A program made the translations under genes and the position numbers. Below the pieces are notes generated by a model. That model searched no databases. It had not been told where the DNA came from and was given only the letters and a program-made list of their open reading frames with translations. Positions 2 to 64,000 of a stretch of DNA of 64,000 nt are shown here, piece by piece. Origin of the DNA: an uncultured Myxococcales bacterium (lineage in GTDB: Bacteria; Myxococcota; UBA4151); NCBI GenBank assembly GCA_964013405.1, contig CAXGWI010000006.1, positions 2,893 through 66,892 of the forward strand, given 5' to 3'. Each line of letters begins with the position of its first letter. Position 1 is the first letter of the stretch.

Positions 2-1045
2 GGCCTTGGGAACTCGGATACAGATGGTGACGGCGTCGACGATATTCAGACGGATAGTCTGTCGGCCGTGAAGGGCGGTGGTGAGCTGCAGCTTCTAGGC
101 AACAAGAAGCGGCGCCTCCGCTGGGGTCTCGCCCTACGGAGCAACCGCGTCGACGATCCGACGCCCTTGGTCGTGGGCTCACGAACCGGACGGCTCTACA
201 CCACGGGGCAACTCTTTCTGGAGTGGCGTCCCGGCGGTCAGGCCATGGGCTTTAAACTGCAACCAAATGGCGCCTACGATGCCTATGATGGTCTCTCTGC
301 GGCAGAGCGAGAACAGGGGGCCACCTACGACCCTACGGCTGCAAACTCCGCGAAGTACGGTCTGCGGTTCGACTATGACTGGCGGCTCTTTCCTCGCACC
401 CAATTTGTGCTCAACAACAGTTGGTCGGTCTCGGAAAGCAAGGATGCCACGTCCAACCCGCTGAACAGTGAAATCGGCCTCATGGGTCAATTCACGCCTC
501 AGCTTTCAGCCATCGTCGCCGGTGGCTACGCCATGAGCAGTTTGTTCTCGAGCCTCAATAAGAATGGCGAGGGTAAGGAGGCCGAAGATACCTCGACGTT
601 CATCGGTCAGGTTGAAGTTCGCTACGATGAAAAGCGCAACACCACCACTCGGGTCGGTTATCGCCGTGCGCTCCTCCCCGCAGCTTTTCACGGCACGATG
701 CAGAATAATCAACTTTACTTCCGCTACTACTCTCGCTTCGGCCGAGGGCTGCGTACACTCTTTAATGCCCAGTATGACTTCCGGGTTTTCGGTGCCCTGA
801 CAGGTGAAAAGCTCAACACCCTCATCAAGGTCGGCGGCGACGAACGGATTGACCATCAGATCACGGTGAACGCCTCTGTGCTCTATCAACCGAAACGCAA
901 CTGGCTCGCAGGTGTCAGCCTCCGTCCGGACTTTGTGAACACCAGCGCCACATTTAACCAGGGCACAGAAGAAGAGCCTGAATATGCAGCAGAAACTGGC
1001 TACCTTCGCCTGATGCTCATGTTCATGTTTGAAGCCAAACTGTAA
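2..1045 (+). CDS. C-terminal part of a secreted/outer-membrane protein (5' end outside window). Reading frame is open from base 2. Visible N-terminal portion carries Asp-rich DxDGDGVxD calcium-binding (thrombospondin-type-3-like) repeat.
   Basis: No stop in frame from pos 2 to 1045 (GLGNSDTDGDGVDDIQTDS...), so the 68 start in the ORF track is not a real N-terminus. Aromatic-rich, beta-strand-like C-terminal region. Confidence 0.4.
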   Translation, partial: GLGNSDTDGDGVDDIQTDSLSAVKGGGELQLLGNKKRRLRWGLALRSNRVDDPTPLVVGSRTGRLYTTGQLFLEWRPGGQAMGFKLQPNGAYDAYDGLSAAEREQGATYDPTAANSAKYGLRFDYDWRLFPRTQFVLNNSWSVSESKDATSNPLNSEIGLMGQFTPQLSAIVAGGYAMSSLFSSLNKNGEGKEAEDTSTFIGQVEVRYDEKRNTTTRVGYRRALLPAAFHGTMQNNQLYFRYYSRFGRGLRTLFNAQYDFRVFGALTGEKLNTLIKVGGDERIDHQITVNASVLYQPKRNWLAGVSLRPDFVNTSATFNQGTEEEPEYAAETGYLRLMLMFMFEAKL

Positions 1046-1638
1046 TGATTCGAGCGCTGTTTGTCGGACTGCTCCTGCTGTCCGGCTGCCGGGGTCATCG
1101 AGCCCCCGCCCCAACCCCTCCTGACCTTGATGCCATTCGGGAAGAACTAGCCCGCCGAACGAGCTTTATTGGCCCCGGCGACATGGTCAGCATCCAGGTG
1201 TACCGACATAAGGACCTCTGCCTCGAACAAGTGGTGAGCGAGGACGGGAGCATTAGTCTGCCCACGGTTGGCGAGATCGCCGTCTCTGGAAAAACCCGGA
1301 AAAACTTGGAGGAGGAGTTGGCCAAACGGCTTGCCGAGGGGGGCATCAAGAACCCTCAGGTCGCCGTGCTCATCAAGAAGCTCGTGAGCGCCAAAATCTC
1401 CGTTTATGGTGAGGTTAAAAAACCAGGAACCTTTCCCTTTGAGTCCGGTATGACCGTCGTTCAGGCGATCACCTTGGCCGCCGGCTTCGAGAAGACGGCG
1501 CAACAAGATGCTGTGGTCATCATTCACGCTTCAGGGGAGCGCCTGGAGGTTCCGGTGCGGGCCATCGGGCTGGGTCAAGTCCCGAACGTCCCGCTCATGC
1601 CTGGCGACATTGTCTATGTCCCGGAGTCCTATTTCTAA
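1045..1638 (+). CDS. Polysaccharide export lipoprotein, Wza/periplasmic Poly_export + SLBB type
   Basis: Lipobox LLLSGC. PGDMVSIQV...GEV(K)KPG and PGDIVYVPE motifs typical of the Poly_export/SLBB fold. Start overlaps stop of upstream gene. Confidence 0.65.
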   Translation: MIRALFVGLLLLSGCRGHRAPAPTPPDLDAIREELARRTSFIGPGDMVSIQVYRHKDLCLEQVVSEDGSISLPTVGEIAVSGKTRKNLEEELAKRLAEGGIKNPQVAVLIKKLVSAKISVYGEVKKPGTFPFESGMTVVQAITLAAGFEKTAQQDAVVIIHASGERLEVPVRAIGLGQVPNVPLMPGDIVYVPESYF

Positions 1639-1653
1639 GGGGTGGAGGGGAGC

Positions 1654-2394
1654 ATGAAGGGTATTATCCTGGCGGGCGGCATGGGGACACGTTTGTCGCC
1701 ACTGACGCGGGTCACCAATAAACACCTGCTCCCAGTCTATGACTGTCCCATGATCTATTACCCGCTTCGTATGCTCGTGACCGCGGGCTTCGAGGAGATC
1801 ATGATCGTCACCGGTGGCGACCACGCCGGCGACTTCCTCAAGCTGCTTGGAAATGGTTCTGAGTTTGGCCTCAAGCATCTCAACTACACCTACCAAAAAG
1901 GCCATGGAGGCATCGCCGAGGCCCTTGGCCTATGCGCCCATTGGGTCGACCGTGATCCCTGCTGTGTGGTTCTTGGTGACAATATCTTTCAATACAGCCT
2001 TGCTCCAGCCGTGGAGCAGTACCGCCAAAATCCCGTGGGGGCGCAAATCTTCATCAAGGAAGTGCCCGATCCCCATCGATTTGGCGTTGCGGAGTTGGCT
2101 GACAACCGGGTGATCCATGTGGAGGAAAAGCCCCAAAACCCTCGGAGCAACTGGGCCATCACAGGGGTCTATTGTTACGATGCGCGGGTCTTCGATATCA
2201 TCGACGGCCTCGAGCCCAGTGCTCGAGGCGAGCTGGAAATCACCGACGTGAACCGGGCCTATCTGGAATGGGGTGACCTGCGGGCGGCCCAGCTGGACGG
2301 CTGGTGGACCGATGCCGGCACCTTCAACAGTCTGCTCCGAGCCGGCCAACTCGTCGCCGAAACGGGGGCAAACCAGCCTGCACCTTCAGCTTGA
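1654..2394 (+). CDS. rmlA: Glucose-1-phosphate thymidylyltransferase
   Basis: MKGIILAGGMGTRLSPLTRVTNKHLLPVYDCPMIYYPL...VLGDNIF, near-canonical RmlA N-terminus. GGAGG RBS 5 nt upstream of ATG 1654. Confidence 0.8.
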   Translation: MKGIILAGGMGTRLSPLTRVTNKHLLPVYDCPMIYYPLRMLVTAGFEEIMIVTGGDHAGDFLKLLGNGSEFGLKHLNYTYQKGHGGIAEALGLCAHWVDRDPCCVVLGDNIFQYSLAPAVEQYRQNPVGAQIFIKEVPDPHRFGVAELADNRVIHVEEKPQNPRSNWAITGVYCYDARVFDIIDGLEPSARGELEITDVNRAYLEWGDLRAAQLDGWWTDAGTFNSLLRAGQLVAETGANQPAPSA

Positions 2395-2407
2395 GAACGA
2401 CGAGGAC

Positions 2408-4708
2408 ATGGGCGGACTAATCGAAAAATTAGATGGGCGTTTAGAGGCCCTTCAAGCCCGCCTCAAGGGCCTGACGCCCGCGCGCTCCGCAGCCGTCGGC
2501 GTGATCCTCGCGGGCCTACTGATCATCCCCTGGCTTGGTAGCACCGGCCTCACCTCACCATGGGAGGCCCAGTACGCCGAGGTGGCCCGCGAAATGACGA
2601 CCACCGGGGACTACATCTACCCCACCTACCGGAATGTGGGTTTCTTCTCGAAGCCCGTCCTCACCATGTGGCTGACAGCACCGGGGCTCTCCCTGACCGG
2701 CGGCTGGATGAGCGACGGGGTTCATTCGGAGTGGATGCCCTTCGCTGTCCGTCTGCCGACAGCCCTCTTGCTCTTACTCTTGGCCTGGTCTTGCCATTGG
2801 GCCGTGACGCGCATCTGGGATCGCCAAACGGCCTTACTGAGCACCGTCGTGCTCGTGACCTCGCCCTTCGTGCTCCTCGCCGGTCGACAAGCGGTCACCG
2901 ACATGCCCTTCCTGGCCCTCCATGGGTCGGCCCTCTGCCTCCTTGCAGGCTATCTCTTCGGCTCACCGCCCGAGGATGAACTCCACGGGCATTTAGACAG
3001 CAAAGCTGCCCTTGCCCTCGCCGGCATCGGTGGCATCGCATCTGAGTTGATTGTGGGACTCGTCGCCCCAGGCCTCAGCTCGGGAATTCGATTGCTCGTC
3101 GCGGTTGTGGTCTTTGTCGCCCTGCTCTTCAGCTTTGCTCGAGCGAGCCGAGTTGAGCAGGAACCGGGCTGGGCGAAACGTCTCGGGCTCTTTAAGGGCC
3201 CCGATGATGACCCGATGCCCCTGTGGTTTCCCATGCTGCTGGCCGCCTTCTTCCTTTTACAGGTGGTCTGGCTCGCGATCACGCCGGAACCCGAGCACTA
3301 TATGGGCTTTCGGCGGGTAGGAGCCCAGCTGCCCGTCCGTCTCACCACCATCGTTCTTCTCATCGTCGCTGGGGCCGGTCTCTGCCTTCACATCAGCAAA
3401 CAGCGACGGGCAGATCTGGCCATCTACGGCTTTTATGCCCTCGTTGGCTTAGCGACCCTCGCGAAGGGGTTCGGTGGTCCACTGATCCCCGGTGCCGTGG
3501 CCCTCGTCTACATCATCACCGCATGGGATTGGGGCATCTTGAAGCGGGTGCGCCTCATCTCAGGCCCCCTCCTCGCCTTGGTGATGGGCGGGCCCTGGTT
3601 TCTGGTCATGCTGAACTACACGGGGCGGGACGAAGAGGGGAAAACCTTCTTCTCCCGATTCATCATCCACGACCATGTGAACCGGGTCGGTGGTGGGATT
3701 CATGGGGACGAGTCGAAACACAAACTCGGCTTCGGCTTCACCTATTACCTCCGCTATCTCAGCTATGGTCTCTTTCCCTGGTCCATGGGGGTCCCCCTCG
3801 CATTGGTCGATGCGGGCCTTCACCGGGAAGCAGAAGAAAGACGCCGGCGGGCCATCCTCTTTCTCGTGGCCTGGTTCGGCACAACCTTTCTGCTGTTTAC
3901 GCTCATGGCCACCAAGTTCCATCACTACGCACTCCCCGTGGTGCCACCGCTGGCGATCCTGGTGGGCATCTGGCTCACCCGTGTTGCTCGGGGGGAATCT
4001 CGCTGGTCGATGGGTCTCGCCTTGCTGGCCATTATCTTTGGGATCTCGGTCGGCTCGGACCTGGCCCGCTTTCCCTGGGAGTGGATGGATCTAACCACCT
4101 ATCATTACATCAATTACAAGCCGAACAGTTACTTCCCTGGCAACGCCACGGGACAATGCGACCTGGGCTATAGTTATTGTTCGATCCTGGGCTTCATCCC
4201 GGTCACCTTGGCCCTGGACTGGCGGCTCATCGTCGGCACCCTCGTCGGCGTCATCGTGGCCCTGATCCTCCTGGCAAGCCTCGGGGTGGTGATTCGAGGC
4301 CTACAGGATGAGGCGAGAGGGCGCCGCTGGGTGGTTGGCAGTTGGATTCTAGGCGCACTCATCACGGGCACTTTTGTGAGTCACGTGTACTTCCCCATGC
4401 TCAGCCAGCACTGGACCCATGCCAACGTCGTCGAGACCTACTTCAAGCAACGGAGCCCGGGAGAAGATCTCGTCGCCTACCAAATGAACTGGCACGGGGA
4501 GACCTTCTATGCCCGCAACTTGGAACACCAGGTCAACGACGGGAAACGCCTGAAAGCCATCGTGGAGCGCCCAGGCACCTCTTGGGTCCTCACGGAACGC
4601 AGCCGCTTTGACGGCATGACCAAAACCCTCGGCAGCAAATATAAGTCGAAGATCCACATCGTCGACCGCAGCAACGTGAAGTGGTTCCTGGTCCGCATCG
4701 ACGACTGA
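2408..4708 (+). CDS. GT-C fold membrane glycosyltransferase, ArnT / PMT (GT39/GT83-like) family. About 12 predicted TM helices plus C-terminal soluble domain.
   Basis: First-loop motif WEAQYAEVAREMTTTGDYIYPT matches the ArnT/PMT DE..YaeiAreM...gdw..P signature. Polytopic hydrophobic profile. Confidence 0.55.
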   Translation: MGGLIEKLDGRLEALQARLKGLTPARSAAVGVILAGLLIIPWLGSTGLTSPWEAQYAEVAREMTTTGDYIYPTYRNVGFFSKPVLTMWLTAPGLSLTGGWMSDGVHSEWMPFAVRLPTALLLLLLAWSCHWAVTRIWDRQTALLSTVVLVTSPFVLLAGRQAVTDMPFLALHGSALCLLAGYLFGSPPEDELHGHLDSKAALALAGIGGIASELIVGLVAPGLSSGIRLLVAVVVFVALLFSFARASRVEQEPGWAKRLGLFKGPDDDPMPLWFPMLLAAFFLLQVVWLAITPEPEHYMGFRRVGAQLPVRLTTIVLLIVAGAGLCLHISKQRRADLAIYGFYALVGLATLAKGFGGPLIPGAVALVYIITAWDWGILKRVRLISGPLLALVMGGPWFLVMLNYTGRDEEGKTFFSRFIIHDHVNRVGGGIHGDESKHKLGFGFTYYLRYLSYGLFPWSMGVPLALVDAGLHREAEERRRRAILFLVAWFGTTFLLFTLMATKFHHYALPVVPPLAILVGIWLTRVARGESRWSMGLALLAIIFGISVGSDLARFPWEWMDLTTYHYINYKPNSYFPGNATGQCDLGYSYCSILGFIPVTLALDWRLIVGTLVGVIVALILLASLGVVIRGLQDEARGRRWVVGSWILGALITGTFVSHVYFPMLSQHWTHANVVETYFKQRSPGEDLVAYQMNWHGETFYARNLEHQVNDGKRLKAIVERPGTSWVLTERSRFDGMTKTLGSKYKSKIHIVDRSNVKWFLVRIDD

Positions 4709-4803
4709 CCGCCGAAGCCCCGAGGGGCTGAGCGCAGCCCCCCTAGCCCGAGCCCAGTTGCGTCAGACCGGGCTCCAGTTGGTCTCCGCAGCGCCAAAAT
4801 AAA

Positions 4804-4829
4804 GAAGAAGGGGCGACCGCCCCTTCTTC
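4804..4829. terminator. Bidirectional rho-independent terminator between convergent genes
   Basis: Perfect 11-bp stem GAAGAAGGGGC / GCCCCTTCTTC with 4-nt loop, flanked by A-rich (left) and T-rich (right) tracts. Confidence 0.7.
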
Positions 4830-4866
4830 ATTAAGCTCAATTTATCACCGCCCAGCGGGCGGCATT

Positions 4867-6513
4867 CTAGGCCGACGATGGCTCCTCTGCGGGCTCTTCG
4901 GGCGCCGGCGGCTGTTGCCCCTTACCCTTTGGTTTCGCATTCCAGACCCGAGTGGCAAGAAGGAAACCGGCGGCGCCCACGATGATCATCGAGATCGGCC
5001 AGGGCGACCAATTGGCTGGCTCAGTCACTTCGCCCACCAACTTACCGGCCTCGTCGAATCGTTCCTGGGGCAAGACGTAGGCGTAGGTTAACGACATGAC
5101 GCCGGTACCAAGATAAACGAAGCCATCGATGATCCCCACGGCGATCCCGACGTTTTTGCGCCCGCCAAAGTCCATAGAGGCTGTACCGGACAGCATGCCG
5201 TGAACGCCGATCACACACATTGAGATCAAAATGGCCAGGACACCTGGCAAGGACAACTTGATACCAGCGATGTTCATGGCTGGGGTCTGATAGGCCCAGA
5301 GGAGTCCGATGGAGCCAAGGGTGACCCCTAGATAGAGAATCGCTGCCACCGGGCCGCGCCGTGACTGGAAGACCCGGTCGGAGATCACACCGGCGAGCAC
5401 GCCGCCCATAATGCCGGCGACGCAAAGCCACATACCCCAGTGGTCGTAGATGAAGTCACCTTTGAGTTGCAGGACCTCGTTGGTCTGCTTGGCAAAGGTC
5501 CGGTACCACTGCATCGGCGCCTGACGAATGAAGCCACTGCAGAACTCAACCAGAGCGATCGTGATGATGATCGGGTTGGTCAGCATACGCTTGAAGACTT
5601 CGAGGGCGCCCAACTGCGGGCCGTCATCGCCAGAAGAGGCGTCAGCGGTGTCAAAGTCGTCAAGACCAGCGTCAGCCGGTGAATTTTGCACCATCATGTA
5701 GTCGGCGACCCAGAAGATGACCAAGAGGATTGCCGGAATAAAGAAGACCTCTGCGACGCCCAAATGATTGACGATCTTATAACCCACATCGAAGGCGAAA
5801 TAGATCCCGAGAGAGATGAGGATCCCGAAGATCGCACCGAAGACACCCCGCTCACGCACGTGGAACCATGGGGCGTTGCACTTCACCACGGCGACGGCAC
5901 CGAAGCTCTGGAAGTACATATTGATGCCGTAGAGCACCGAGAAGATGACGATGAAGTTCTCTCCGATCGCCCCGTGCATGGGCCCCTCCTTGATAAGACT
6001 CCACGACGCCAAACCCATCAAAAGGTTCGCAAAAGCCGAGCCACCAGCGCCCACCAAAATGGCGAAACGACCGCCGAGGCGATCCGTGAGCGGCCCGTTG
6101 ATCAAAAAGGAGCAACCATAGACCCAAACGCCGACCGTAAAGATCACGCCGAAGCCCTCATTGCTCATGAGTGCGCCACCGGCAGCGTCCTGCATTTCCT
6201 CGAACTTAAACTTGGACACCTTCAGGTTGTAGCGACCCATGTAGAGGAAGGCGTAGGTGAGCCCAAGGGGTAACCAATTCATCACTCGTCGACGCTTAAA
6301 TGCGGCGGAATGATTCACTTCATCGACCGTTGGTAGGCGACTGATAACGAAGACCACCACGGCCAGAAGAATGAAGATGGCGATAAGTTCGCCGTAAGGG
6401 CCCAACCCACTGGCTTTGTCCGCAGCGAATGCGTCGGTGGCAGCAAGAAGGGTGGCGATGAAGAGCGCTGGTCGCATGGCTGCAACTCCAATTGATCGCG
6501 GCTGCGTTGACAT
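4867..6513 (-). CDS. MFS family transporter (substrate unknown)
   Basis: 12+ TM profile. MFS motif-A-like GPLTDRLGGRFAIL. Confidence 0.55.
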   Translation of the reverse strand: MSTQPRSIGVAAMRPALFIATLLAATDAFAADKASGLGPYGELIAIFILLAVVVFVISRLPTVDEVNHSAAFKRRRVMNWLPLGLTYAFLYMGRYNLKVSKFKFEEMQDAAGGALMSNEGFGVIFTVGVWVYGCSFLINGPLTDRLGGRFAILVGAGGSAFANLLMGLASWSLIKEGPMHGAIGENFIVIFSVLYGINMYFQSFGAVAVVKCNAPWFHVRERGVFGAIFGILISLGIYFAFDVGYKIVNHLGVAEVFFIPAILLVIFWVADYMMVQNSPADAGLDDFDTADASSGDDGPQLGALEVFKRMLTNPIIITIALVEFCSGFIRQAPMQWYRTFAKQTNEVLQLKGDFIYDHWGMWLCVAGIMGGVLAGVISDRVFQSRRGPVAAILYLGVTLGSIGLLWAYQTPAMNIAGIKLSLPGVLAILISMCVIGVHGMLSGTASMDFGGRKNVGIAVGIIDGFVYLGTGVMSLTYAYVLPQERFDEAGKLVGEVTEPANWSPWPISMIIVGAAGFLLATRVWNAKPKGKGQQPPAPEEPAEEPSSA

Positions 6514-6620
6514 ACCCCTGAAAGGAGGTCGACTGTCAATATGGCAGCCTCATGCCTGCCATTGTGACCTTTGACGCATGACATCACAGCTTATCTTATT
6601 GTTTTTATGTCTTATTTTTC

Positions 6621-6636
6621 TGGCACGAGCCCTGCA
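6621..6636 (+). promoter_or_regulatory. Candidate sigma-54 (-24/-12) promoter for the gsp operon
   Basis: TGGCACGagccCTGCA: GG and GC at exact consensus spacing (TGGCACG-N4-TTGCA). Lies in the only AT-rich stretch of the window, 28 nt upstream of the gspC TTG start, and is followed by AGGAGGAGG RBS. Confidence 0.4.
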
Positions 6637-6663
6637 GTCTAAGCCAGGTAGGAGGAGGCTATC

Positions 6664-7617
6664 TTGGATCGTTTGGCCCGCTTCAAGCCCTTAGGACCCT
6701 TTCTAGGCCTGGCCTTGATCGCCTATTTGTCGGCTGGGATCGTCACCACCTTCATCGCGGATTCTCGGATGCCCGTCCCCGGCATCCCGGAAGCCTCCAA
6801 ATCGAAGAAGCGTAAACGACGCAGCAACCGGGGCAATCTGACCGCGCACATCGCCGAACGCAATCTCGCCGGCACCAAACGAAGTGAGCAGCCAGTTGCA
6901 GCCGCAGCCCCCACCGAAGCCGTCGACGATGGCGACTTGGTCAAGTCCAGCATCAACGGCCATGTCATCGCGGTCGTTCGCTTCGAAAATAAGGCATGGA
7001 GCGTGGCCCAGATCGAAAACGGGCTGCAGCGCAAAAGCTACATCGGCTACATCGGCGATCGCATGTGGCCCAATGACAACGCCGGTGCAGACCTGTTCGA
7101 GATCCTCGATATCGAAGCCGAGCGGGTCATCATCCGTGAGCTCAGCAACAACAAGCGCTCTTACCTTGAGCGCAAAGAGCAAAAGGGTGGCCCCTCGGCG
7201 AGTCCCAGCACGGGTAAAGGAAGTAAGTCTTCCGGCAAATCCGGCAAACGCAGCGAGGTCACCAAAGAGATCGTCAAAGGCATCAAATCCTCAGGCAATA
7301 ATCGCTGGGAGGTGGAGCAGAAATCCATCGACACCGTGCTCAACAACCTCAGTGTCCTGAGCCAAGATGCCCGGGTGGTGCCCGATTTCTCCGGCGGCAA
7401 ACAGCGGGGCTTCAAGCTCTTCTCCATCAAACCCGGTAGCGTATATTCGAAAATTGGTGTCCGCAACGGCGACATCCTGACCAGCGTCAACGGCTACGGT
7501 CTCGACAGTCCCGATAAGATTCTCGAGGTCTACGGCAAGCTCAAAGACAGCAGCCAGATCACCGTCGATATCCTTCGGCGCGGCAAACCCCTCTCCCTTG
7601 AGTACAGCATTCGCTAG
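6664..7617 (+). CDS. gspC: T2SS protein C-like (N-terminal TM anchor, Lys/Ser-rich linker, C-terminal PDZ domain)
   Basis: TTG start 7 nt after AGGAGGAGG. PDZ-like GVRNGDILTSVNGYGLDSPDKILEVY at C-terminus. First gene of the gsp operon. Confidence 0.55.
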   Translation: MDRLARFKPLGPFLGLALIAYLSAGIVTTFIADSRMPVPGIPEASKSKKRKRRSNRGNLTAHIAERNLAGTKRSEQPVAAAAPTEAVDDGDLVKSSINGHVIAVVRFENKAWSVAQIENGLQRKSYIGYIGDRMWPNDNAGADLFEILDIEAERVIIRELSNNKRSYLERKEQKGGPSASPSTGKGSKSSGKSGKRSEVTKEIVKGIKSSGNNRWEVEQKSIDTVLNNLSVLSQDARVVPDFSGGKQRGFKLFSIKPGSVYSKIGVRNGDILTSVNGYGLDSPDKILEVYGKLKDSSQITVDILRRGKPLSLEYSIR

Positions 7618-7649
7618 CGGGCAGCTGGCGTGATTAGAAAGGACCGACC

Positions 7650-10061
7650 ATGAACGGTCTCAAACCCCTTCTCGTGATGCTGGCCCTGTCCAGCCCTCTC
7701 GTGCTCAGCACAACGGCTCAGGCCCAGTCGTCGAAGCGCAAAGGCAGCCGAGGCAAACCGGTCGACTGCTTTAAAGAGCAGACCTACAAGTTGCCGAAGC
7801 TGCTGCAGCTGATGAGTGAGCTCACCCGCAAAAACTTCATCCTCAACGAGAAGTTAAAAAACAAAGAGGTCACCATCTACTGCGAGCGCTCCGTCTCGGT
7901 AAACGAGATGTATCGAGTGTTTATCAGCGCCCTCGCCATCCATAAACTCACCATCGTTCGGGTGGGCAAGTTCTACCGCGTCACGGCCATGAAGGACGCG
8001 AAAGGCGCGCCAAGCCCCACCTACTTGGGCAGCACCGAAGGTATGCCCTACGACGAGCGACTCGTGACCCTCATCCATAAGCTCAAGCACATGGATGCCA
8101 GTGTGATCCAGAAGGTCATCAAGTCCATGGTCGGCAAGAACGGAAAACTAGAAGTCCTCCCCCCCCGCTTAATCGTTCTCTCCGACAATGCCCTGAACAT
8201 TCGTCGCTTGCTGAAAGTCATCGAGCATCTCGACACCGAAGGTGGATCCCAACGAATCCACTTCTATGAAGCCCGCTATGCGGAGGCTCAAAGCCTTGCC
8301 GCCAAGCTCAAGGAGGTCTTCGAGGTCGAGGGAAAGAACAAGTCGAAGAAGAAGAGCGGCAGTAAGAAGAAGGCAAAGGGTGGTGAGACGAGTCCAGACG
8401 AAGTGGTTCTCGACCGTGTGGTGGCCGATGAGCGCACCAACCAGTTGATCATCGTGGCCCCCGAAGCCGCCTTCAAGCGGGCTAAGGACCTTCTCGACAA
8501 ACTGGATGTACCCACCCCTGATGATGAAGGGGCCATCCACGTCATTCGTCTCGAAAACGCGACCGCAAAGGATCTGGCGGGCACCCTTTCTGGCCTCATC
8601 ACCGGTGTGACCTCCAATCGGAAATCCAAAAGTAAGAAGAAGAGTTCCAGTGGGGGTCGAGCAACCTCCGACCCGGAAGGCTTGTTTCAAGGGGACGTTA
8701 AAGTCAGCGCCGACGAACCGACCAACTCACTGGTGGTGGTGGCCAGCCGCAACGACCTACGGGTCTTAAAAAACATTGTGGAGAAGCTGGACTACCGGCG
8801 CCCACAAGTCTTCGTTGAAGCAGCCTTCTTAGAGCTCACCATCAATGACAACAGCCAGATCGGGGCCGGCATGCACACGGGGGTCACCACCCAGGGCACG
8901 GACTGGGAAGATGGCGACTTCGAGTTTCTCAAAGATGGCGGCGGTGTCGTCAATATGAACACGGGACTCAATTCGCTGACCAGCGGCTTGGGTCAAATCG
9001 CGAGCCAGGGCCTGGTCGGCACCTTCCAAGGCATGCCCATCCCGGGACTGGATGCCATTCTGCCCGACAACATGACCCTGCCGACCTTCGGTATCGTCCT
9101 CCAAGCCCTGCAGGGCAATGGGGCCGTCGATGTACTCTCCACGCCCCACCTGCTGACGACGGACAACGAAGAAGCGGAAATCGTCGTCGGTGAGAATGTC
9201 CCCTTTGCTTCCGGTCTCTCCGGCGGGCTCGGCGGCCTGTCCAACCTGCTCGGTGGCGCGGCGAACAGTGGTACGGCTTCGGCAGCCTCATCGGCCCTCT
9301 CCGGCCTGGGTGGCTTGGGCATTCCCAGCGTCAGCATTCAGCGCCAAGATGTGGCCCTCAAGTTTAAGCTGACGCCCCATATCACCAACACGGGCCATGT
9401 CCGCATGGAGTTGGAGGTGGAAATCAGCGAACTGGGCGAGATCGAGCCCACCACCCGAAGCCCCAGGACCACCCAACGCAAACTGAAAACCACCGTGCTC
9501 GCCATGGATAACCAGACCATCGTCATCGGCGGACTCATCAGCGACAAACAGACGGAATCGGAAAACCGAATTCCCATTCTGTCCCGCATCCCCCTCTTGG
9601 GTCATCTGTTCAAAAACCGCGAAACGAAAACGGCGAAGACCAATCTACTGATGGTGCTGACCCCCCACGTGGTTCGAGACCAACAGGACTTCGCTCGGAT
9701 CCACCGGGAAAAGATGCAGGAGCGCAAAGCCTTGGCCAGTCTCGCGAAGAGGCGCCACAGTTCCCTTCCCCCCAGCGTAAACTGGCGGCGTAAGATCGGC
9801 GCATTTGCTCGCATTGAACGGGTGCTCCAAGACCAAGAGTCCCGGATCGAAAACGGTGGCAAGGGTGACGGTTCAGACGCTGTGATCACACCAGAGAAGG
9901 CCGCGGAAGAGAAGCCTGCAGTCGAAGGGGAATCAGAAGAAGAATCGAGCCCCAAAGAGGGTGAGGCTCCCGATGCCGCCAAGGCCGATGAGCCCAGCAA
10001 GGACGGGGAAGCCCCCAAAGGCACAGAAGATCAGAAGCCGGCTGACAAGGGAGCCAAGTAA
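7650..10061 (+). CDS. gspD: T2SS secretin
   Basis: Signal peptide. Canonical secretin C-domain VIGGLISDKQTESENRIPILSRIPLLGHLFKNRETKTAKTNLLMVLTPHVV. Confidence 0.9.
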   Translation: MNGLKPLLVMLALSSPLVLSTTAQAQSSKRKGSRGKPVDCFKEQTYKLPKLLQLMSELTRKNFILNEKLKNKEVTIYCERSVSVNEMYRVFISALAIHKLTIVRVGKFYRVTAMKDAKGAPSPTYLGSTEGMPYDERLVTLIHKLKHMDASVIQKVIKSMVGKNGKLEVLPPRLIVLSDNALNIRRLLKVIEHLDTEGGSQRIHFYEARYAEAQSLAAKLKEVFEVEGKNKSKKKSGSKKKAKGGETSPDEVVLDRVVADERTNQLIIVAPEAAFKRAKDLLDKLDVPTPDDEGAIHVIRLENATAKDLAGTLSGLITGVTSNRKSKSKKKSSSGGRATSDPEGLFQGDVKVSADEPTNSLVVVASRNDLRVLKNIVEKLDYRRPQVFVEAAFLELTINDNSQIGAGMHTGVTTQGTDWEDGDFEFLKDGGGVVNMNTGLNSLTSGLGQIASQGLVGTFQGMPIPGLDAILPDNMTLPTFGIVLQALQGNGAVDVLSTPHLLTTDNEEAEIVVGENVPFASGLSGGLGGLSNLLGGAANSGTASAASSALSGLGGLGIPSVSIQRQDVALKFKLTPHITNTGHVRMELEVEISELGEIEPTTRSPRTTQRKLKTTVLAMDNQTIVIGGLISDKQTESENRIPILSRIPLLGHLFKNRETKTAKTNLLMVLTPHVVRDQQDFARIHREKMQERKALASLAKRRHSSLPPSVNWRRKIGAFARIERVLQDQESRIENGGKGDGSDAVITPEKAAEEKPAVEGESEEESSPKEGEAPDAAKADEPSKDGEAPKGTEDQKPADKGAK

Positions 10062-58223: not shown

Positions 58224-60697
58224 TGACTTCGCCGGCGCCCAGCCGAATGGAACGGATACTCAGCATCGGCGGGTGGCTGACTCGCTTTAGTTTGATGCTT
58301 GGGGCCGCAGCCCTCATTCCTGCGGGCTGGTTCGCACTCTCTTTGTATCAAGAACATCGGGAAGGGTTGCCCCCCGTCCCCGATCTAGACAACTACCGGC
58401 CGCCATCGATCACCCGGGTCCTGGCGGCCGATGGCACCACCTTGGCCGAGTTTGCCGAGGAGCGACGGATCGTCGTTCCCTATCAGCGCATGCCCCAGCG
58501 GCTGGTGCAGGCCTTCGTGGCTGCGGAAGACAAGAACTTCTTCGACCACGACGGTGTCGACCTCAAAGGCATCGTGCGCGCAGCCCTCGTGAACCTCAAA
58601 GCGGGGCGCACCGTACAGGGGGCATCCACCATCACCCAGCAATTGGCCAAGCAGCTCTTGGTTCGGCACCAGGGTTACAGCAAAGGCCGAATGCGCAGTT
58701 TGGCGCGCAAAATCCGTGAGGCGATCCTCGCCCGGCGAATCGAATACGCCCTCGATAAAGAGGAGATCCTCTACCTCTATCTCAACGAAATCTATCTGGG
58801 TCATGGTGCTTACGGTGTCCAGGCCGCCTCCCAGGCCTATTTTTCGAAGAATGTAGAGAGTCTCAGCCTGGGTGAGATGACGTTGCTCGCGGGCCTACCG
58901 CCGGCCCCCAGCCGGTTCTCGCCCCTAAAAAATCCAAAGTCGGCGCGAACCAAACAAGGCTATGTTTTGAAGCGCATGATCGAAGAGGGCTATATCAGCC
59001 TGGAGGATGCGAAAGCGGCCCGACAGGAAGGGGCCGAAAAGAAGGTCAAAGTTCGCGAAAACCTGTTTCGAGACATCGCCCCTTATTTCACCGAGCAGGC
59101 TCGACAGGTCTTCGTCGACCAAATGGGTGAAGAGGAGTTGATGCGGGGAGGCTGGACCATTCAAACCACCCTGGACATCTCCCGGCAGATCAAAGCGAGG
59201 ACAGCGCTCCAAGAGGGCATTGAGGCTTTGGATCGGCGCATGGGTTATTGGGGGCCAGCAGCCCGCTTCCAGCCCGAACAAGTGGAGGCAGTGGCCAAGA
59301 CCTACGCAAAAAATGTCCTCAAGGGCGCACCGGCGAGCCGCGAGCGAGAGCATCTCGCCATCATCGCCCGTACCGAGCGAAAAAGAGCCCTCGCCCGAGT
59401 CGGCGACGAGCTCCTGCCCATCCACCTCAGCGACCATCGTTGGATGCGCACCGGCCGCCGCCGAGCCTATAGCCTCCACGACCGTCCCACCGATCTTCGT
59501 CGCCGCTTTGAAGTGGGCGATCTGCTTCGGGTACGTTTCGACACGGACCGCAAGGGCAGGGAAAAGCTTCGTGTGGTACAGGACCCACTGCCCGAAGGGG
59601 CCTTGGTCAGCCAGGATTTGCGCACCGACTACGTGGTGGCCTTGGCCGGCGGTTACGACTTTGACCGTAGTCAGTTTAACTGCGCCTTTCAGGCTTGCCG
59701 ACAGCCGGGGAGCGCTTTCAAGCCCATTATCTTTTCCGCAGGTCTGGCTCTGGGGGGGCGCATCCGCCGGGGGGCGCCCGTGGAGACGATCACCGTCACC
59801 ACCCAGCTGAGCGATGCCCCCATCGTCCGCCACGATTTCTCCACCGGGGTGCGCTGGAAGCCGGCCAACTACGACCGCAGCTATACCGACGAGGTCACCC
59901 TCCGGCGGGCTTTGATGATGAGCATGAATTTGCCCACCATCGACCTCTTTGAACGGGTGGGCTCAAAGAAGGTGGTGGAATGGGCCAACAGCATCGGCAT
60001 CGAGCAGGAACTGCATGTGGATGCGAGCATCGCGCTGGGCAGCCACTGCGTCATTCCTTGGGAGTTGCTGCAGGTCTACGCCTTGTTCGGCAAAGCCGGT
60101 CAACGACCAGCTAAGCGCTTCATCACCCGCATAGAATCCAGTGAAGGCGATGTCTTTGAAGATCGGGCCGATTACCGAGACGTCTGGGCGAGCCGCTTTG
60201 AACGCGTCGATCGCATGGCGCGCCAGGCCCTGGAGCCCCCAGAACAAGTCATCGCACCGGGCATCGCCTACATTATGACCTATCTGATGCGGCAAGTCGT
60301 GGACGCCGGCACAGCCACTCGAGCCCGCATCTCTGGGGTCCCCGTGGCGGGCAAGACCGGCACGACCAACGACAACAAGGACGCCTGGTTTGTGGGCTAC
60401 AGTCCCCACCTCGTCACCGGCGTCTGGATCGGTGAGCGCTTCAACCTGCGACCCTTGGGGCGCTCAGAGACCGGGGGCAGAACGGCTGCTCCCATCTGGA
60501 AGGCCTATATGACCGCAGCCCTCGACGGCACCGATCCGGGGGACTTTGGGGTGCCCGATGACATCGAATTTGCCGAGGTGGACGCCCGCTCGGGCCGCTT
60601 GGGCGGCAAAACCCGATTGCCCTATATGAAGGGGACGAAGCCCACCCGCCGAGTTCGGGTCGACAATCAATCAGCGGGGGTCAGCGACGAGCTCTAG
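58223..60697 (+). CDS. mrcA: Class A penicillin-binding protein (PBP1A-type transglycosylase/transpeptidase)
   Basis: GT51 motifs EDKNFFDHDGVD and RKIREA. Transpeptidase SxxK/SxN/KTGT (SAFKP, KTGTTN). Confidence 0.85.
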   Translation: MTSPAPSRMERILSIGGWLTRFSLMLGAAALIPAGWFALSLYQEHREGLPPVPDLDNYRPPSITRVLAADGTTLAEFAEERRIVVPYQRMPQRLVQAFVAAEDKNFFDHDGVDLKGIVRAALVNLKAGRTVQGASTITQQLAKQLLVRHQGYSKGRMRSLARKIREAILARRIEYALDKEEILYLYLNEIYLGHGAYGVQAASQAYFSKNVESLSLGEMTLLAGLPPAPSRFSPLKNPKSARTKQGYVLKRMIEEGYISLEDAKAARQEGAEKKVKVRENLFRDIAPYFTEQARQVFVDQMGEEELMRGGWTIQTTLDISRQIKARTALQEGIEALDRRMGYWGPAARFQPEQVEAVAKTYAKNVLKGAPASREREHLAIIARTERKRALARVGDELLPIHLSDHRWMRTGRRRAYSLHDRPTDLRRRFEVGDLLRVRFDTDRKGREKLRVVQDPLPEGALVSQDLRTDYVVALAGGYDFDRSQFNCAFQACRQPGSAFKPIIFSAGLALGGRIRRGAPVETITVTTQLSDAPIVRHDFSTGVRWKPANYDRSYTDEVTLRRALMMSMNLPTIDLFERVGSKKVVEWANSIGIEQELHVDASIALGSHCVIPWELLQVYALFGKAGQRPAKRFITRIESSEGDVFEDRADYRDVWASRFERVDRMARQALEPPEQVIAPGIAYIMTYLMRQVVDAGTATRARISGVPVAGKTGTTNDNKDAWFVGYSPHLVTGVWIGERFNLRPLGRSETGGRTAAPIWKAYMTAALDGTDPGDFGVPDDIEFAEVDARSGRLGGKTRLPYMKGTKPTRRVRVDNQSAGVSDEL

Positions 60698-61082
60698 GAC
60701 CGCTCCGCAGACGAGATATCAGACGATCAGCGCGACGAGTCATTCGGGATAAAAGGAGGGCTCGAAAACGAGAGATACGAATCGCTCGCCCGTTGCGCTC
60801 AATGGCGGCGAGCTTGCCGATGGCTTGGCTGCGATCGAACCAGCCGTCATCCTCGTTGCGGTGATCACCTTGTAGCCGTAGCTGCCCCTCTTGGTGCTCC
60901 ATCAGGCGATGCAGCAACAGATCGCCCGGGCTCCGCTCGATCAAGACCACATCCCCCCGCCGCAAGGGCCCATCGATGGGAACGATTCGAACCAAGTCAC
61001 CGGCTTTAATCCAAGGCCACATGCTGCGACCTTGGGCGAAGAATCGGATGGGTTTGCCTTCTTTTAGGAGCCGGGCAAGCAC
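60681..61082 (-). CDS. Soluble S26-family (signal-peptidase-I fold) peptidase, ER/archaeal Ser/His type. Start ambiguous (GTG 61082 or ATG 61187).
   Basis: Box B GRSMWPWIKAGDLV, box C RRGDVVLIE, box D LLLHRLM (His in place of Lys), box E GDHRNEDDGWF. No TM segment. Confidence 0.5.
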   Translation of the reverse strand: MLARLLKEGKPIRFFAQGRSMWPWIKAGDLVRIVPIDGPLRRGDVVLIERSPGDLLLHRLMEHQEGQLRLQGDHRNEDDGWFDRSQAIGKLAAIERNGRAIRISRFRALLLSRMTRRADRLISRLRSGPRARR

Positions 61083-61840
61083 GCAGCAGCCTCCAAGGTC
61101 TCGACCAGGGCGTCTCGAGGAGAGTCCCCTCGCAAATTCCAATGGACCCGGTAACAGGGGACGTTGTCCACCACCCGCTTCACCCAACTCAAATCAGGAG
61201 CCAGGTCCTCTGCTTCCAGGCGAACGACTGCGGAAAGAAGCGCTGTTGCAGCATCGGCGGCGGTCACCGGCTCAATCCGAGGAGCGCGCTCAGACTGGAC
61301 CGGCATTAAGAGCGCACTCAAAGGGCGACGCTCTAGGTGGTCGGCACGCAATTCCCCGGGAACCACGGTGCCCTGCAGCCAAAAATCATCCGTTTGGCCG
61401 CCAAATCGAATCAGCTCGTCGCCAAGTTGCTCAAGTCCCAAGCGACGAACTAAGGTCGACTTTCCAGCACCGGAAGCGCCAAGAATCAAAAAGCCACGGT
61501 CCGTGCTCAAACAGCAACCAGCCGCGTGGGCGATGCGCCAATCATTGCCCTTACTTGCCGCAGCCAAGGCGGCAATCACCCCCACAAAATGACTCCAGGG
61601 CACCGTCCAGCGGGTGTGAACCCGAGGGTTACGGTAAGTCGTGACTCGAAGAATCCGATCGTCAAAATTCCAGTCCAGTCGATCGAGAGCGAACTGGTTA
61701 GATTGCATTCGAGGGAGCGTCGTTGATCCCGACCGCAGCACGAGGGTCAGCGCCTCTGCTCCGTGGTCACATGCTTCGGGCTGATACCGGCCGCACCACC
61801 GGAATAAGTCGGACAGATCCTCTTCCGACTCGATCTCCAC
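61064..61840 (-). CDS. HPr kinase C-terminal-domain-like P-loop kinase (HprK-related kinase)
   Basis: P-loop GFLILGASGAGKSTLVRRLG aligned to HprK gvLi.G.SGiGKSe.aleL. About 130-aa N-terminal domain of unknown function. Confidence 0.55.
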   Translation of the reverse strand: MEIESEEDLSDLFRWCGRYQPEACDHGAEALTLVLRSGSTTLPRMQSNQFALDRLDWNFDDRILRVTTYRNPRVHTRWTVPWSHFVGVIAALAAASKGNDWRIAHAAGCCLSTDRGFLILGASGAGKSTLVRRLGLEQLGDELIRFGGQTDDFWLQGTVVPGELRADHLERRPLSALLMPVQSERAPRIEPVTAADAATALLSAVVRLEAEDLAPDLSWVKRVVDNVPCYRVHWNLRGDSPRDALVETLEAAACLPGS

Positions 61841-61890
61841 AGAAAGGTCCGACTGAAGAAGGAGTCGATTCGAAATGGTGCCGATACCCT

Positions 61891-62022
61891 TTTACTTGGA
61901 CTCGCTAAGAAGCACGTCCTGAGTAAGCTCTTGCTCGCTGATCACCTCAGGCCGAAAATAAGGAACCCGCTCTTTGGTGGGTAAGCGAGGCGCACGGCCC
62001 TCCTCTTTTTTCTCTTCTGCCA
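61891..62022 (-). CDS. Unannotated 43-aa ORF: MAEEKKEEGRAPRLPTKERVPYFRPEVISEQELTQDVLLSESK. Candidate substrate/precursor peptide.
   Basis: ATG 62022 preceded by AAGGGAG at -8. Lies 13 nt after the FG-GAP protein stop and 50 nt before the kinase start, same strand. High-GC third positions consistent with coding. Confidence 0.35.
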
Positions 62023-62035
62023 TGTCTAGACTCCC

Positions 62036-64000
62036 TTAATGTCGAATATTCACGTAGCCGCCACCGGAACGAACCGGGAAGGCGAGGTCAGGTTTTCCAT
62101 CCAAGTTCGCATCGGGCAAACACACCCCATGGACGGCGCCACTGGTGTTTGCGTCGAGCCCAGTGCCCACACCGTAGGTCTTCGCCAGGGTTGTGATCGC
62201 ACTGCCAAAGTATACATAGCCCTCGTTCGTCGCCCCAGTGAGGAGATCCATTTTACCATCACCGTCGATGTCACAAAGACTCGATTCGTCGATTTCGTTA
62301 AAGCTGCTCGATCCGGCCGGCGCGGTGATCACATGATCTCGCGCTCCACCCAATGCAGGGCCACCCTCCCAGATCGAGATGGCTCGAGTGCAACAACCAT
62401 TACCGGCCAAGATATCCGCGGTGCCGTCACCGGCGACATCGCCCACAGCAAGATAAAATCCGGTTTTACCTTCGCCGCCGCCCGCACCGGCAAGCAGAAT
62501 CACGCCCGCACTCTGATAGGTGTAGGCACCATCTGCGATCGGCCCGGGAACCACGACGAGCTCCCCGACGTTGCCATTGGCTTCTTCACCGCCAATAATG
62601 AGGTCGCCATTACCGTCGCCTGTCACATCTCGACCCGCGTTCAACGACGTACCAGTCGACGAGAAGGGTCGACCTGTCACCGTCACCGCGGCATCCGCAT
62701 CACTACGATTTTGGGTCAGGATATCACCATCCCAAACCCAGGTCTTACCGGTGGAGCTGTTGTGGCGCCAGGAGGAGGCTGCAAGGTCAACGGTTGCATC
62801 ACCCACAAGAGAGCCACCGGCCGATAAAGAGTAACCAAAGCGGTCACCAGCGGTACCCGTGATCGTGATGCTTGGATTTGCCGCCAAGCCCGCTCCGGAG
62901 CCGTTGTAGATGAAGATCTTGCCATCACCATCTCTAGGTGCGGAGACGACGAGATCATCAAAGCCGTCACCGTTAAAGTCTGCGGCCGTGCAATCGCTGC
63001 CGAATCGGCCGCCACTTGCCGTTCCAAAGCGGGTGATTGGAGTGAGATTACTCAAATCGTCTGCACCCATGAAGATGATGGCGCCGCCCACCTGGGAGCC
63101 GGCGGGCGCAAAGCTGCGATCGGTCACCACCAAGTCACTGCGACCGTCGTTGTTGAAGTCACCACGACACGCACGCTGGGCGAACTTATTCGTATTGCCC
63201 GTAATTCCGCTGGCTGCGTAGGCTGACAGGGTCAGACTAAAGTCGACGGAGAGCGTGCCGAGATCCGACGTATTGCCTAGGTCATCCGTTGCCTGACCTG
63301 CGAAGAAGACCTGCTGGTCAAAGGGCAAACCTGTCACCGAGACCAAAAGATTTTGGCCGGCACCTGCCGGCGTCATCTCAGCGTTGATAACGGTCGCATT
63401 ACCGAAATTGTTGGCATCGATAGCAGCCGAGCTATGGCGTAGACTGTAAGACGTCACCGTCCCCTGATCGAAGTCGTCGCCAGGCTCAGTCCAATTGATA
63501 TCCACACTGCCTGCACGGTTGTTCACATTGGCACTGGCCAAGCTCATCGCATCTGGCTTCCCGACGTCGACATTCGCCACCAGCTGCGTTGTCGCTGTGT
63601 TGCCGTTGGCATCAGTGGCCGTCACCGTCAGCGTGTGGTTCTGGTTCGTCAAACGAATATCAGTGATCACGTTATCGGTATCGCCGGCCACTGCTTTCGT
63701 TTGCACATCGCCGTCCTGATCGCTGTTGACCACCAGGGTGCCACCGGCCGCACCACCAACGGCGACCGTAATACTGGTGTCTAAGCGCAGATCGCCGGCA
63801 TTGTTCTCGTGCACTTCATCGTCATCATAAACATAAGTGACCGGACTGTTGGCTGGATCCGTAATCTCCACCGTAGGAGCCACCGTATCTACGATGGCGT
63901 TAATAGCAACTTGCGTCGTGTTGTTCTGAGCGTCGGAAATCGAGGCACTCACGCTCACCGTTCCTTCGTCAACGGTCACCCCAGCAAAACTGACCGAGGC
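62036..64000 (-). CDS. Large secreted FG-GAP (integrin-alpha-like beta-propeller) / Ig-like repeat protein, C-terminal part (N-terminus outside window)
   Basis: Repeated FG-GAP Ca-binding loops: FNNDGRSDLVV, FNGDGFDDLVV, GDGNGDLIIG, GDGTADILAG, DGDGKMDLL. Thr/Asn-rich Ig-like N-terminal repeats. Confidence 0.55.
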   Translation of the reverse strand, partial: ASVSFAGVTVDEGTVSVSASISDAQNNTTQVAINAIVDTVAPTVEITDPANSPVTYVYDDDEVHENNAGDLRLDTSITVAVGGAAGGTLVVNSDQDGDVQTKAVAGDTDNVITDIRLTNQNHTLTVTATDANGNTATTQLVANVDVGKPDAMSLASANVNNRAGSVDINWTEPGDDFDQGTVTSYSLRHSSAAIDANNFGNATVINAEMTPAGAGQNLLVSVTGLPFDQQVFFAGQATDDLGNTSDLGTLSVDFSLTLSAYAASGITGNTNKFAQRACRGDFNNDGRSDLVVTDRSFAPAGSQVGGAIIFMGADDLSNLTPITRFGTASGGRFGSDCTAADFNGDGFDDLVVSAPRDGDGKIFIYNGSGAGLAANPSITITGTAGDRFGYSLSAGGSLVGDATVDLAASSWRHNSSTGKTWVWDGDILTQNRSDADAAVTVTGRPFSSTGTSLNAGRDVTGDGNGDLIIGGEEANGNVGELVVVPGPIADGAYTYQSAGVILLAGAGGGEGKTGFYLAVGDVAGDGTADILAGNGCCTRAISIWEGGPALGGARDHVITAPAGSSSFNEIDESSLCDIDGDGKMDLLTGATNEGYVYFGSAITTLAKTYGVGTGLDANTSGAVHGVCLPDANLDGKPDLAFPVRSGGGYVNIRH

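Follow-up and report, generated by a model that had tools for sequence, protein, structure and literature searches.

PqqD-family proteins are peptide-binding chaperones of precursor peptides. In pairs such as PqqA/PqqD and MftA/MftB, the precursors are very short and only one or two of their C-terminal residues become the product. Here we analyze a small open reading frame (ORF) in a 64-kb stretch of DNA from an uncultured Myxococcales bacterium (contig CAXGWI010000006.1; the whole stretch is hereinafter the window). It codes for a 43-residue peptide, MAEEKKEEGRAPRLPTKERVPYFRPEVISEQELTQDVLLSESK, followed by TAA (61892–62023, minus strand), has homologs in seven lineages, and lies in an operon together with genes for a PqqD-family protein, a P-loop protein related to HPr kinase (HprK) and ScmC, and an S24/S26-type peptidase. 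We posit, with a probability of about one half, that it encodes a precursor-like substrate peptide of a compact processing module of the type that produces peptides synthesized by the ribosome and modified after their translation (RiPPs).

Among the described systems, those for kinase-tailored lasso peptides offer the closest functional parallel. In lasso systems, a YxxPxL leader motif is bound by the PqqD-like B1 protein (PMC10368454), and homologs of HPr kinase phosphorylate a serine of linear lasso precursors carrying this motif (PMC8498205; PMC10368454). The characterized lasso kinases target either the C-terminal serine (PadeK, ThcoK and SyanK) or a serine in the ring of the core (BsfK). 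Like the systems for paeninodin (PadeA/PadeK) and its Bradymonadales counterpart (BsfA/BsfK), the window locus combines a small precursor-like peptide with an HprK-fold protein and a PqqD-family RiPP recognition element (RRE), and the peptide carries a Y-x-x-P-x-[LV] motif about 17–18 residues from the end of its conserved region. However, the operon lacks both the cyclase (C) and the transglutaminase-type B2 protease, its protease being of the S24/S26 type; moreover, the tail of 3–12 residues that follows the conserved region is too short for a macrolactam ring of 7–9 residues plus a tail, and offers neither an N-terminal Gly/Ala/Ser/Cys with an Asp/Glu at positions 7–9 nor a C-terminal serine. 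Hence, with no adequate core, no cyclase and no B2 in the operon, the peptide is not a lasso precursor, though by analogy it appears functionally most like the leader of a kinase-tailored one.

A second point of comparison is SynChlorMet (Scm), which comprises the HprK-like ScmC, the PqqD-like ScmD and the radical S-adenosylmethionine (SAM)/SPASM proteins ScmE and ScmF (TIGR04248–TIGR04251). The PqqD-family protein of the operon has ScmD as its best match (2.3e-13), and relatives of the window's kinase-like P-loop protein give faint hits to ScmC, both in NCBIfam and in the precomputed records for Pfam PF27840. Yet the ScmD match reaches only 50.2 bits where the cut-off is 100, no hit to ScmC (E ≤ 0.1) was obtained with the kinase-like protein of the window itself, and the operon, while lacking an ScmE/ScmF radical SAM gene, encodes an S24 peptidase along with a giant surface protein. 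Lacking radical SAM maturases and scoring under the cut-offs, it is thus not a member of SynChlorMet. Comparably, PqqA and MftA resemble the window peptide in being tiny, in having a PqqD-family partner and in bearing their chemically relevant residues at the extreme C-terminus; however, their pathways need a radical SAM enzyme (PqqE or MftC) that the window operon lacks, and the peptides share no sequence similarity with the window peptide. To our knowledge, the TIGRFAM descriptions leave the precursors of cassettes of the ScmC-like/PqqD/S24 type undefined, and the small peptide is probably the substrate of such a cassette class.

Coding potential and conservation of the small ORF

The preliminary description of the window, made from its letters alone, pointed to a 132-nt ORF between two co-directional genes. 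The ORF is indeed present, one base away from the 61891–62022 given there, on the minus strand. As described, its ATG is preceded by the Shine-Dalgarno (SD) sequence AAGGGAG (62031–62037, minus strand) with a 7-nt spacer, which overlaps the TAA of the upstream gene (62036–62038). It takes up most of a 195-nt gap that extends from the end of this upstream gene, coding for a giant FG-GAP lipoprotein (62036), to the listed GTG of the P-loop gene (61840), both likewise on the minus strand. The composition of the peptide had been overdrawn: it has 10 acidic and 8 basic residues rather than 12 and 9, and a 'Ser-rich' C-terminus overstates its three serines, two of which fall within the last four residues. 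Taken by itself the ORF is just suggestive, since shuffled gaps on the same strand yield a closed ATG-initiated ORF of at least 43 codons in 6.4% of cases, and one also preceded by an SD-like tetramer in about 1%; it is conservation elsewhere that makes the case. Nor is the ORF 'invisible', as had been supposed: standard gene callers predict the identical 43-residue protein on the 12 public contigs examined (Tara Oceans and other marine assemblies). It has no paralogs within the window, and scans of the peptide and its relatives against Pfam and NCBIfam matched no family. A real, previously unannotated small gene is added to this marine Myxococcota-like genome.

We obtained homologs by three routes, namely the contigs bearing homologs of the kinase-like gene, a profile search of a collection of 5.8 billion proteins and an exhaustive search with HMMER across 1.84 billion representatives. 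The window-type peptides number seven distinct versions of 43–49 residues with 26–84% identity to the window peptide, and the HMMER search recovered four small homologs beyond the input sequences (E 2.8e-12 to 4.3e-4). In all six lineages for which DNA is available, the ORF occupies the same syntenic position upstream of an HprK-like gene, as the preliminary description had proposed to look for, with its start codon, SD-like sequence, frame and stop kept over 43–49 codons and with no frame-shifting indels within it. Hence, the conserved look first ascribed to the ORF is borne out by its diverged versions. A scan of 60500–62600 against Rfam (E ≤ 1) gave no match, and thus no known RNA element accounts for this conservation.

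Within the peptide, R19, Y22, P25, Q35, D36 and L38 are invariant in all seven window-type versions, as is a Ser or Thr at position 40 (Y+18), while the position five residues after the tyrosine (V27 in the window) is always V or I. The PYFRP core singled out earlier thus contains two of the invariant residues, Y22 and P25, and the six codons from Y22 to V27 (Y22-F-R-P25-E-V27; 61943–61960, minus strand) constitute a Y-x-x-P-x-V motif, which we propose as the recognition motif for the PqqD-family RRE. A second block, Q35-D36-V-L38-L-S40 (61904–61921, minus strand), marks the boundary between the conserved part, which spans R19 to S/T40, and a variable tail of 3–12 residues; it is a candidate phospho-acceptor or cleavage region, an assignment made by inference. 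The tail of the window peptide, E41-S42-K43 (61895–61903, minus strand), has as its counterparts EAK, GSGD, HPEHGAADPADC and SPPPPEED.

Selection acts unevenly along the peptide. In comparison with the distant lineage L013, the ratio of nonsynonymous to synonymous rates (omega) is about 0.22 with saturated synonymous sites, and Ser42 is kept between the two despite a switch of codon family from TCC to AGC. Against the close strain L034, omega is about 0.78 overall, with pN/pS of about 1.1 for codons 1–20 and about 0.45 for codons 21–43; the comparison with L001, the closest relative, shows seven nonsynonymous changes and one synonymous change. The ratio below 1 by which the ORF was to be checked is therefore seen with L013 and in the C-terminal half, but not in the first 20 codons between close strains, and lends weak support. 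These patterns indicate that the N-terminal third of the peptide is under almost no constraint, and that a few fixed residues hold its C-terminal block. With the frame preserved at every orthologous locus, we are nearly certain that the ORF is a real protein-coding gene. The divergence from L034 is concentrated in a hypervariable patch at codons 6–20 (61964–62008 on the minus strand of the window; 384–428 in L034): 13 of the 20 N-terminal residues differ, 12 of them within the patch, and the 30 nt upstream are identical. A compensated frameshift as its cause was ruled out by the gap-free alignment, the patch being made of point substitutions.

A homologous cassette with radical SAM enzymes

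A scan of genomes with the family of the kinase-like protein led to loci in Acidobacteriota, Thermomonas and Clostridiales; it was dominated by the P-loop pattern, with five true cases among 600 matched stretches. A scan of metagenomes with a C-terminal kinase alignment free of the P-loop recovered near-identical contigs only. The Acidobacteriota loci, together with one from Methylomirabilota that came from the look-up of a related peptide (L017, L018, L020, L022, L023 and L024; about 8.3–19.7 kb each), code in this order for a PqqD-family protein, a radical SAM/SPASM enzyme, a peptide of 55–63 residues, a ScmC-like protein and a giant protein combining an S24-like N-terminus, about 10 CLIPPER/DUF11 repeats and a Peptidase_C25 domain. 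The peptide family comprises over 2,700 clusters; no functional name occurs among the matches listed, and none of the members scanned matched a Pfam or NCBIfam model. Across 116 of these peptides, the motif Y..P.[VILM] is present in every one and the first Cys always lies at Y+20, followed by a Lys; exactly three Cys are found in 112 and a Gly-Ser end in 115. The comparison thus exposes a very large family of three-Cys precursor-like peptides with a fixed set of partners and a giant surface protein, for which we found no description in the searchable literature; likewise, searches of the available literature, among them on ScmC, on SynChlorMet and on HPr kinase together with radical SAM and RiPP, found no description of either cassette.

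Several lines of evidence tie the window operon to this cassette. Pairwise comparisons establish homology between the kinase-like proteins (E 2e-11), between the PqqD proteins (E 9e-9) and between the window's S24 protein and the S24 domain at the N-terminus of the giant protein from Acidobacteriota (39% identity, E 1e-13). In both cassettes, the peptide is encoded at the same place, directly upstream of the kinase-like gene and in the same orientation; both share the (R/K)xPYxxPxV motif, and both operons include a giant protein with immunoglobulin (Ig)-like repeats. Alignment of the two peptide families with hhalign over the (R/K)xPYxxPxVV segment gives a probability of 88.5% (E 2.7e-6), and the profile hidden Markov model (HMM) of each type ranks the peptides of the other first among about 1,000–3,300 ORFs. 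Moreover, the window peptide aligns without gaps from P-Y to its final K (Y+21), its S42-K43 (Y+20 and Y+21) falling on the invariant C-K, and it stops where the Acidobacteriota-type core starts.

The two types also differ in clear ways. In contrast to the Acidobacteriota cassette, the window type is devoid of a radical SAM enzyme, and its peptide lacks Cys, the GS C-terminus and a core of 20–25 residues; the combination of the LRPEEAVLGxCK block, three Cys and a radical SAM/SPASM neighbor that marks the Acidobacteriota type is thus not found here. No radical SAM CxxxCxxC motif occurs in ORFs of at least 200 residues in the window or in those of at least 90 residues in L003, a contig of the same organism that continues past its end. 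Further, the window S24 protein is free-standing, and the giant protein is an FG-GAP/Big_13 lipoprotein encoded before the peptide, rather than a CLIPPER/C25 protein encoded after it. A third variant is seen in a Thermomonas metagenome-assembled genome (MAG; L019, 9014–11876), with a 55-residue peptide (...RRAYVKPEF...ETMALACGK...C...NS) followed by an S24-like fragment (GGSMLP), a ScmC-like protein, a PqqD-family protein and a radical SAM/SPASM enzyme; the S24 ORF looks broken there, possibly due to long-read indels.

By analogy to the described systems, and from the position of the peptide in the homologous cassette, we infer PqqD binding, phosphorylation, cleavage and the nature of the product as follows. 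The PqqD-family protein would bind the R-x-P-Y-x-x-P-x-V segment (R19–V27), and the HprK-fold enzyme would consume ATP in phosphorylating a hydroxyl close to the C-terminus, for which Ser/Thr40, the only invariant hydroxyl in the family, is the best candidate. The S24/S26-like peptidase might then cut near the Q-D-[VA]-L-x-[ST] boundary, which would leave a leader-like fragment of 40 residues and a variable tail of 3–12. In evolutionary terms, the window-type peptide would have been derived by truncation and loss of Cys from the three-Cys precursors, of about 57 residues, of the radical SAM cassette that is widespread in Acidobacteriota and has the same partners. In that larger family the radical SAM enzyme would act on the Cys core, and the other three proteins on the leader-proximal segment that the window type has kept; the joint loss of the radical SAM enzyme and of all Cys fits such a division. 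We provisionally class the peptide as an RRE-dependent, kinase-associated precursor-like peptide, in keeping with the RiPP-type precursor implied by the preliminary description, which suits the PqqD-family gene in the operon and the Cys-rich precursor at the same position in the homologous cassettes. With the radical SAM enzyme and the Cys core lost, the window variant amounts to a natural 'deletion mutant' that isolates the action of the kinase-like, S24 and PqqD proteins on the leader-proximal segment, and makes the functions of these partners directly testable in a tractable system of four small genes.

Several observations weigh against this proposal. The tail has just three residues in four of the seven window-type peptides, leaving almost no 'core', and the peptides end in K, D or C, unlike the Acidobacteriota type with its GS end, and never in the C-terminal Ser that PadeK, ThcoK and SyanK target. 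The operon holds no class-defining modifying enzyme (neither an Asn-synthetase-like lasso cyclase nor a B2 protease), with just an HprK-fold protein and an S24-like peptidase as candidates. The PqqD-family gene is documented for the window's own lineage only, the other window-type contigs being too short. Matches of the partner proteins to the ScmC, ScmD and HprK models fall far below the curated cut-offs, and the cross-type E-values of the peptides are weak when taken alone (0.03–0.8 in small databases). Finally, the selection between close strains noted above is weak, in contrast to the neighboring FG-GAP gene with a pN/pS of about 0.07.

The same alignment also lends itself to a degenerative interpretation, under which the ORF is a drifting remnant with little or no function, the leader of a radical SAM RiPP precursor that outlived its core and maturase. 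The peptide breaks off at the very position at which the Acidobacteriota type starts its variable core, with S-K in place of C-K at Y+20 and Y+21; the lack of a radical SAM motif in the window, the near-neutral N-terminal half and the high overall omega between close strains would also be expected of a decaying gene. However, the frame, start, SD sequence and seven invariant positions have been kept across saturated DNA and next to kinase-like proteins with just 39% identity, and the PqqD, kinase-like and S24 genes have been retained along with the peptide. Given so large a divergence of the lineages, a dead 43-codon ORF would not have lasted, and we consider this interpretation improbable.

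Partner proteins and the giant surface protein

The genes of the operon are ordered as follows: thioredoxin-like protein, PqqD-family protein, giant FG-GAP lipoprotein, small peptide, HprK/ScmC-like P-loop protein and S24/S26-type peptidase, after which comes a convergent PBP1A gene. The succession of giant FG-GAP/Ig-like gene, peptide and P-loop gene is conserved in each of the six lineages with DNA, down to a peptide identity of 26%, and the S24-like peptidase gene is next in order wherever the contig extends that far. The PqqD-family gene (92 codons) lies two genes upstream of the small ORF, just past the end of the window, on contigs L003 and L004 of the same organism, and its product matches Pfam PqqD with 9.5e-16. 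Directly upstream of it, in the same orientation, is a gene for a 353-residue protein with a C-terminal thioredoxin/TlpA-like domain (L003, 113–1174), which was not found in the Acidobacteriota cassettes.

The P-loop gene (61064–61876, minus strand) is listed with a GTG start at 61840, giving 258 residues, though the true start is probably an ATT at 61876–61874. An identical protein is recorded from a Myxococcales bacterium MAG. Its HMM matches to HprK-related families are faint; its AlphaFold2 model has a confidence (pLDDT) of about 75–93 for residues 90–255, and a Foldseek search of the PDB with this model retrieves as top matches the HprK/P structures 1kkl, 3tqf and 1knx as well as phosphoenolpyruvate carboxykinase (PEPCK), at E 1e-4 and with template-modeling (TM) scores of 0.3–0.5. 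The family has an invariant H105, a GASGAGKST P-loop (GxSGxGKST) and D141-E142. The model thus assigns the protein to the HprK/PEPCK P-loop fold, from which a kinase role is predicted.

The S24/S26-type peptidase-like gene (60681–61187, minus strand) has an uncertain start that gives products of 133–168 residues. Its product displays a serine motif, GxSMxP, and a histidine motif, LHRL, i.e., a His where LexA and signal peptidase I have a Lys, as in the Ser-His (SipW/archaeal) type, and shows weak matches to archaeal/SipW-type signal peptidases and to the maturation protease of nickel superoxide dismutase. No hydrophobic N-terminal segment was detected in it. Based on these motifs and the missing segment, it looks like a soluble processing protease. 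Depending on the start, the ORF shares 19–124 nt with the 3′ end of the kinase-like gene; gene callers give it 113, 133 or 168 residues, the shortest of which would drop the catalytic GRSMWP serine motif.

The giant FG-GAP/Big_13 lipoprotein gene precedes the small ORF in every lineage; in the window its 3′ part (62036–64000, minus strand) runs off the end, while in L003 it is complete (1533–8324) and codes for 2263 residues with Big_13, Big_3 and FG-GAP repeats and an N-terminal lipoprotein signal (...LVALGGLSGC). Its constancy raises a reading in which the peptide is no substrate at all but a small accessory subunit, binding to the PqqD or the kinase-like protein as an adaptor or regulator, and in which the real target of the module lies elsewhere, e.g., in the giant lipoprotein. 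Indeed, the giant Ig-repeat protein is the most constant neighbor, its gene ending 7–13 nt before the small ORF or overlapping it in every lineage; the S24 domain of Acidobacteriota is itself part of the giant CLIPPER/C25 protein; and with virtually no core, the conserved part of the peptide would be the whole functional unit. Nevertheless, the equivalent ORF in the homologous cassettes bears the hallmarks of a precursor, namely a conserved leader, three invariant Cys, an adjacent radical SAM/SPASM gene and an invariant C-terminal GS, and PqqD-family proteins have a known role as chaperones that bind precursor peptides. We accordingly regard the adaptor role as unlikely, though it is the rival to be taken most seriously.

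If the peptide is instead a substrate, as we prefer, one may speculate, with less conviction than even the adaptor role commands, that the locus represents a minimal RiPP-like system with an HprK-fold kinase and a soluble S26/SipW-type peptidase as its only enzymes, guided by PqqD. Such a system would yield either a very short phosphorylated tail of 3–12 residues or a 40-mer, processed at its C-terminus, that acts together with the giant FG-GAP lipoprotein or becomes attached to it, and the module would then serve the maturation or decoration of giant adhesins rather than an antibiotic pathway. Were this true, the same logic of adhesin decoration would also explain the constant pairing of the large Acidobacteriota family with S24-fused giant CLIPPER/C25 surface proteins.

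Start of the kinase-like gene and the adjacent hairpin

The listed GTG of the kinase-like gene corresponds to GTT in L001 and L002 and to ATT in L013, such that the window clade has no conserved canonical start there. In this region (61840–61891 on the minus strand of the window, 251–310 in L001 and 2909–2965 in L013), 12 codons upstream of the GTG are conserved as protein (...ISNRLLLQSDLS-VEIESEEDL...), and the sole start candidate common to the clade is the ATT/ATT/ATC at 61876–61874, 15 nt past the TAA of the small ORF. As the listed GTG is not conserved in relatives, the gene most likely begins upstream at this ATT/ATC, which suggests initiation at AUU/AUC or coupling by termination and reinitiation. 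More distant lineages have an ordinary GTG or ATG start. A fusion of the peptide to the kinase-like protein by read-through or frameshifting was also considered and rejected: in the window and L034 they share a frame, with a single TAA between them, but in L001, L002 and L013 a 1-nt indel just past the stop shifts them into different frames, and such a fusion is thus not conserved.

This arrangement raises the prospect that the ORF is mainly an upstream ORF feeding ribosomes to the kinase-like gene, with its peptide sequence being secondary. The lack of a conserved canonical start in the window clade and the 15-nt distance from the stop to the ATT/ATC do favor termination-reinitiation. Yet the invariant amino acids are retained where codons have changed synonymously or from one codon family to another, as at Ser42; profile hits reach E 1e-12 in the 1.8-billion-protein library; and distant lineages whose kinase-like genes have ordinary starts still keep the peptide. 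We therefore give little credence to coupling as the main role of the ORF, even less than to its being a remnant, though coupling may well coexist with a function of the peptide.

The preliminary description had further proposed that a hairpin-capable sequence between the small ORF and the kinase-like gene tunes stoichiometry. The palindrome-like 16-nt sequence (TCGACTCCTTCTTCAGTCGG; 61849–61868, minus strand) is present, but its fold is weak and not conserved. It forms a stem of 5 bp with an 8-nt loop (−5.2 kcal/mol), 26 of 200 shuffles fold as well (z = −1.18), and the 86-nt region around it has a fold z of +0.33. That it might be a transcriptional attenuator or terminator setting the ratio of precursor to enzyme finds some backing in this free energy and in a consensus scan that lists it as terminator-like, with six pairs if G-T is included, an 8-nt loop and a tail rich in T. 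However, the terminator-like sites in the region number two against 1.7 ± 1.3 expected by shuffling; the stem is broken by a single substitution in L001 and absent from L013; and what is conserved in the sequence is its codons (R-L-L-L-Q-S), which belong to the probable N-terminus of the kinase-like protein, i.e., to its likely 5′ coding extension. Attenuation is thus highly improbable, and any setting of stoichiometry here would, if anything, come from tight translational coupling.

The identity between the window (59880–62141) and L001 forms a mosaic, with 93–98% across the final part of the FG-GAP gene and much the greater part of the small ORF and only 63–80% around 60700–60800 and in parts of the PBP1A gene, which hints at recombination or at very uneven constraint.

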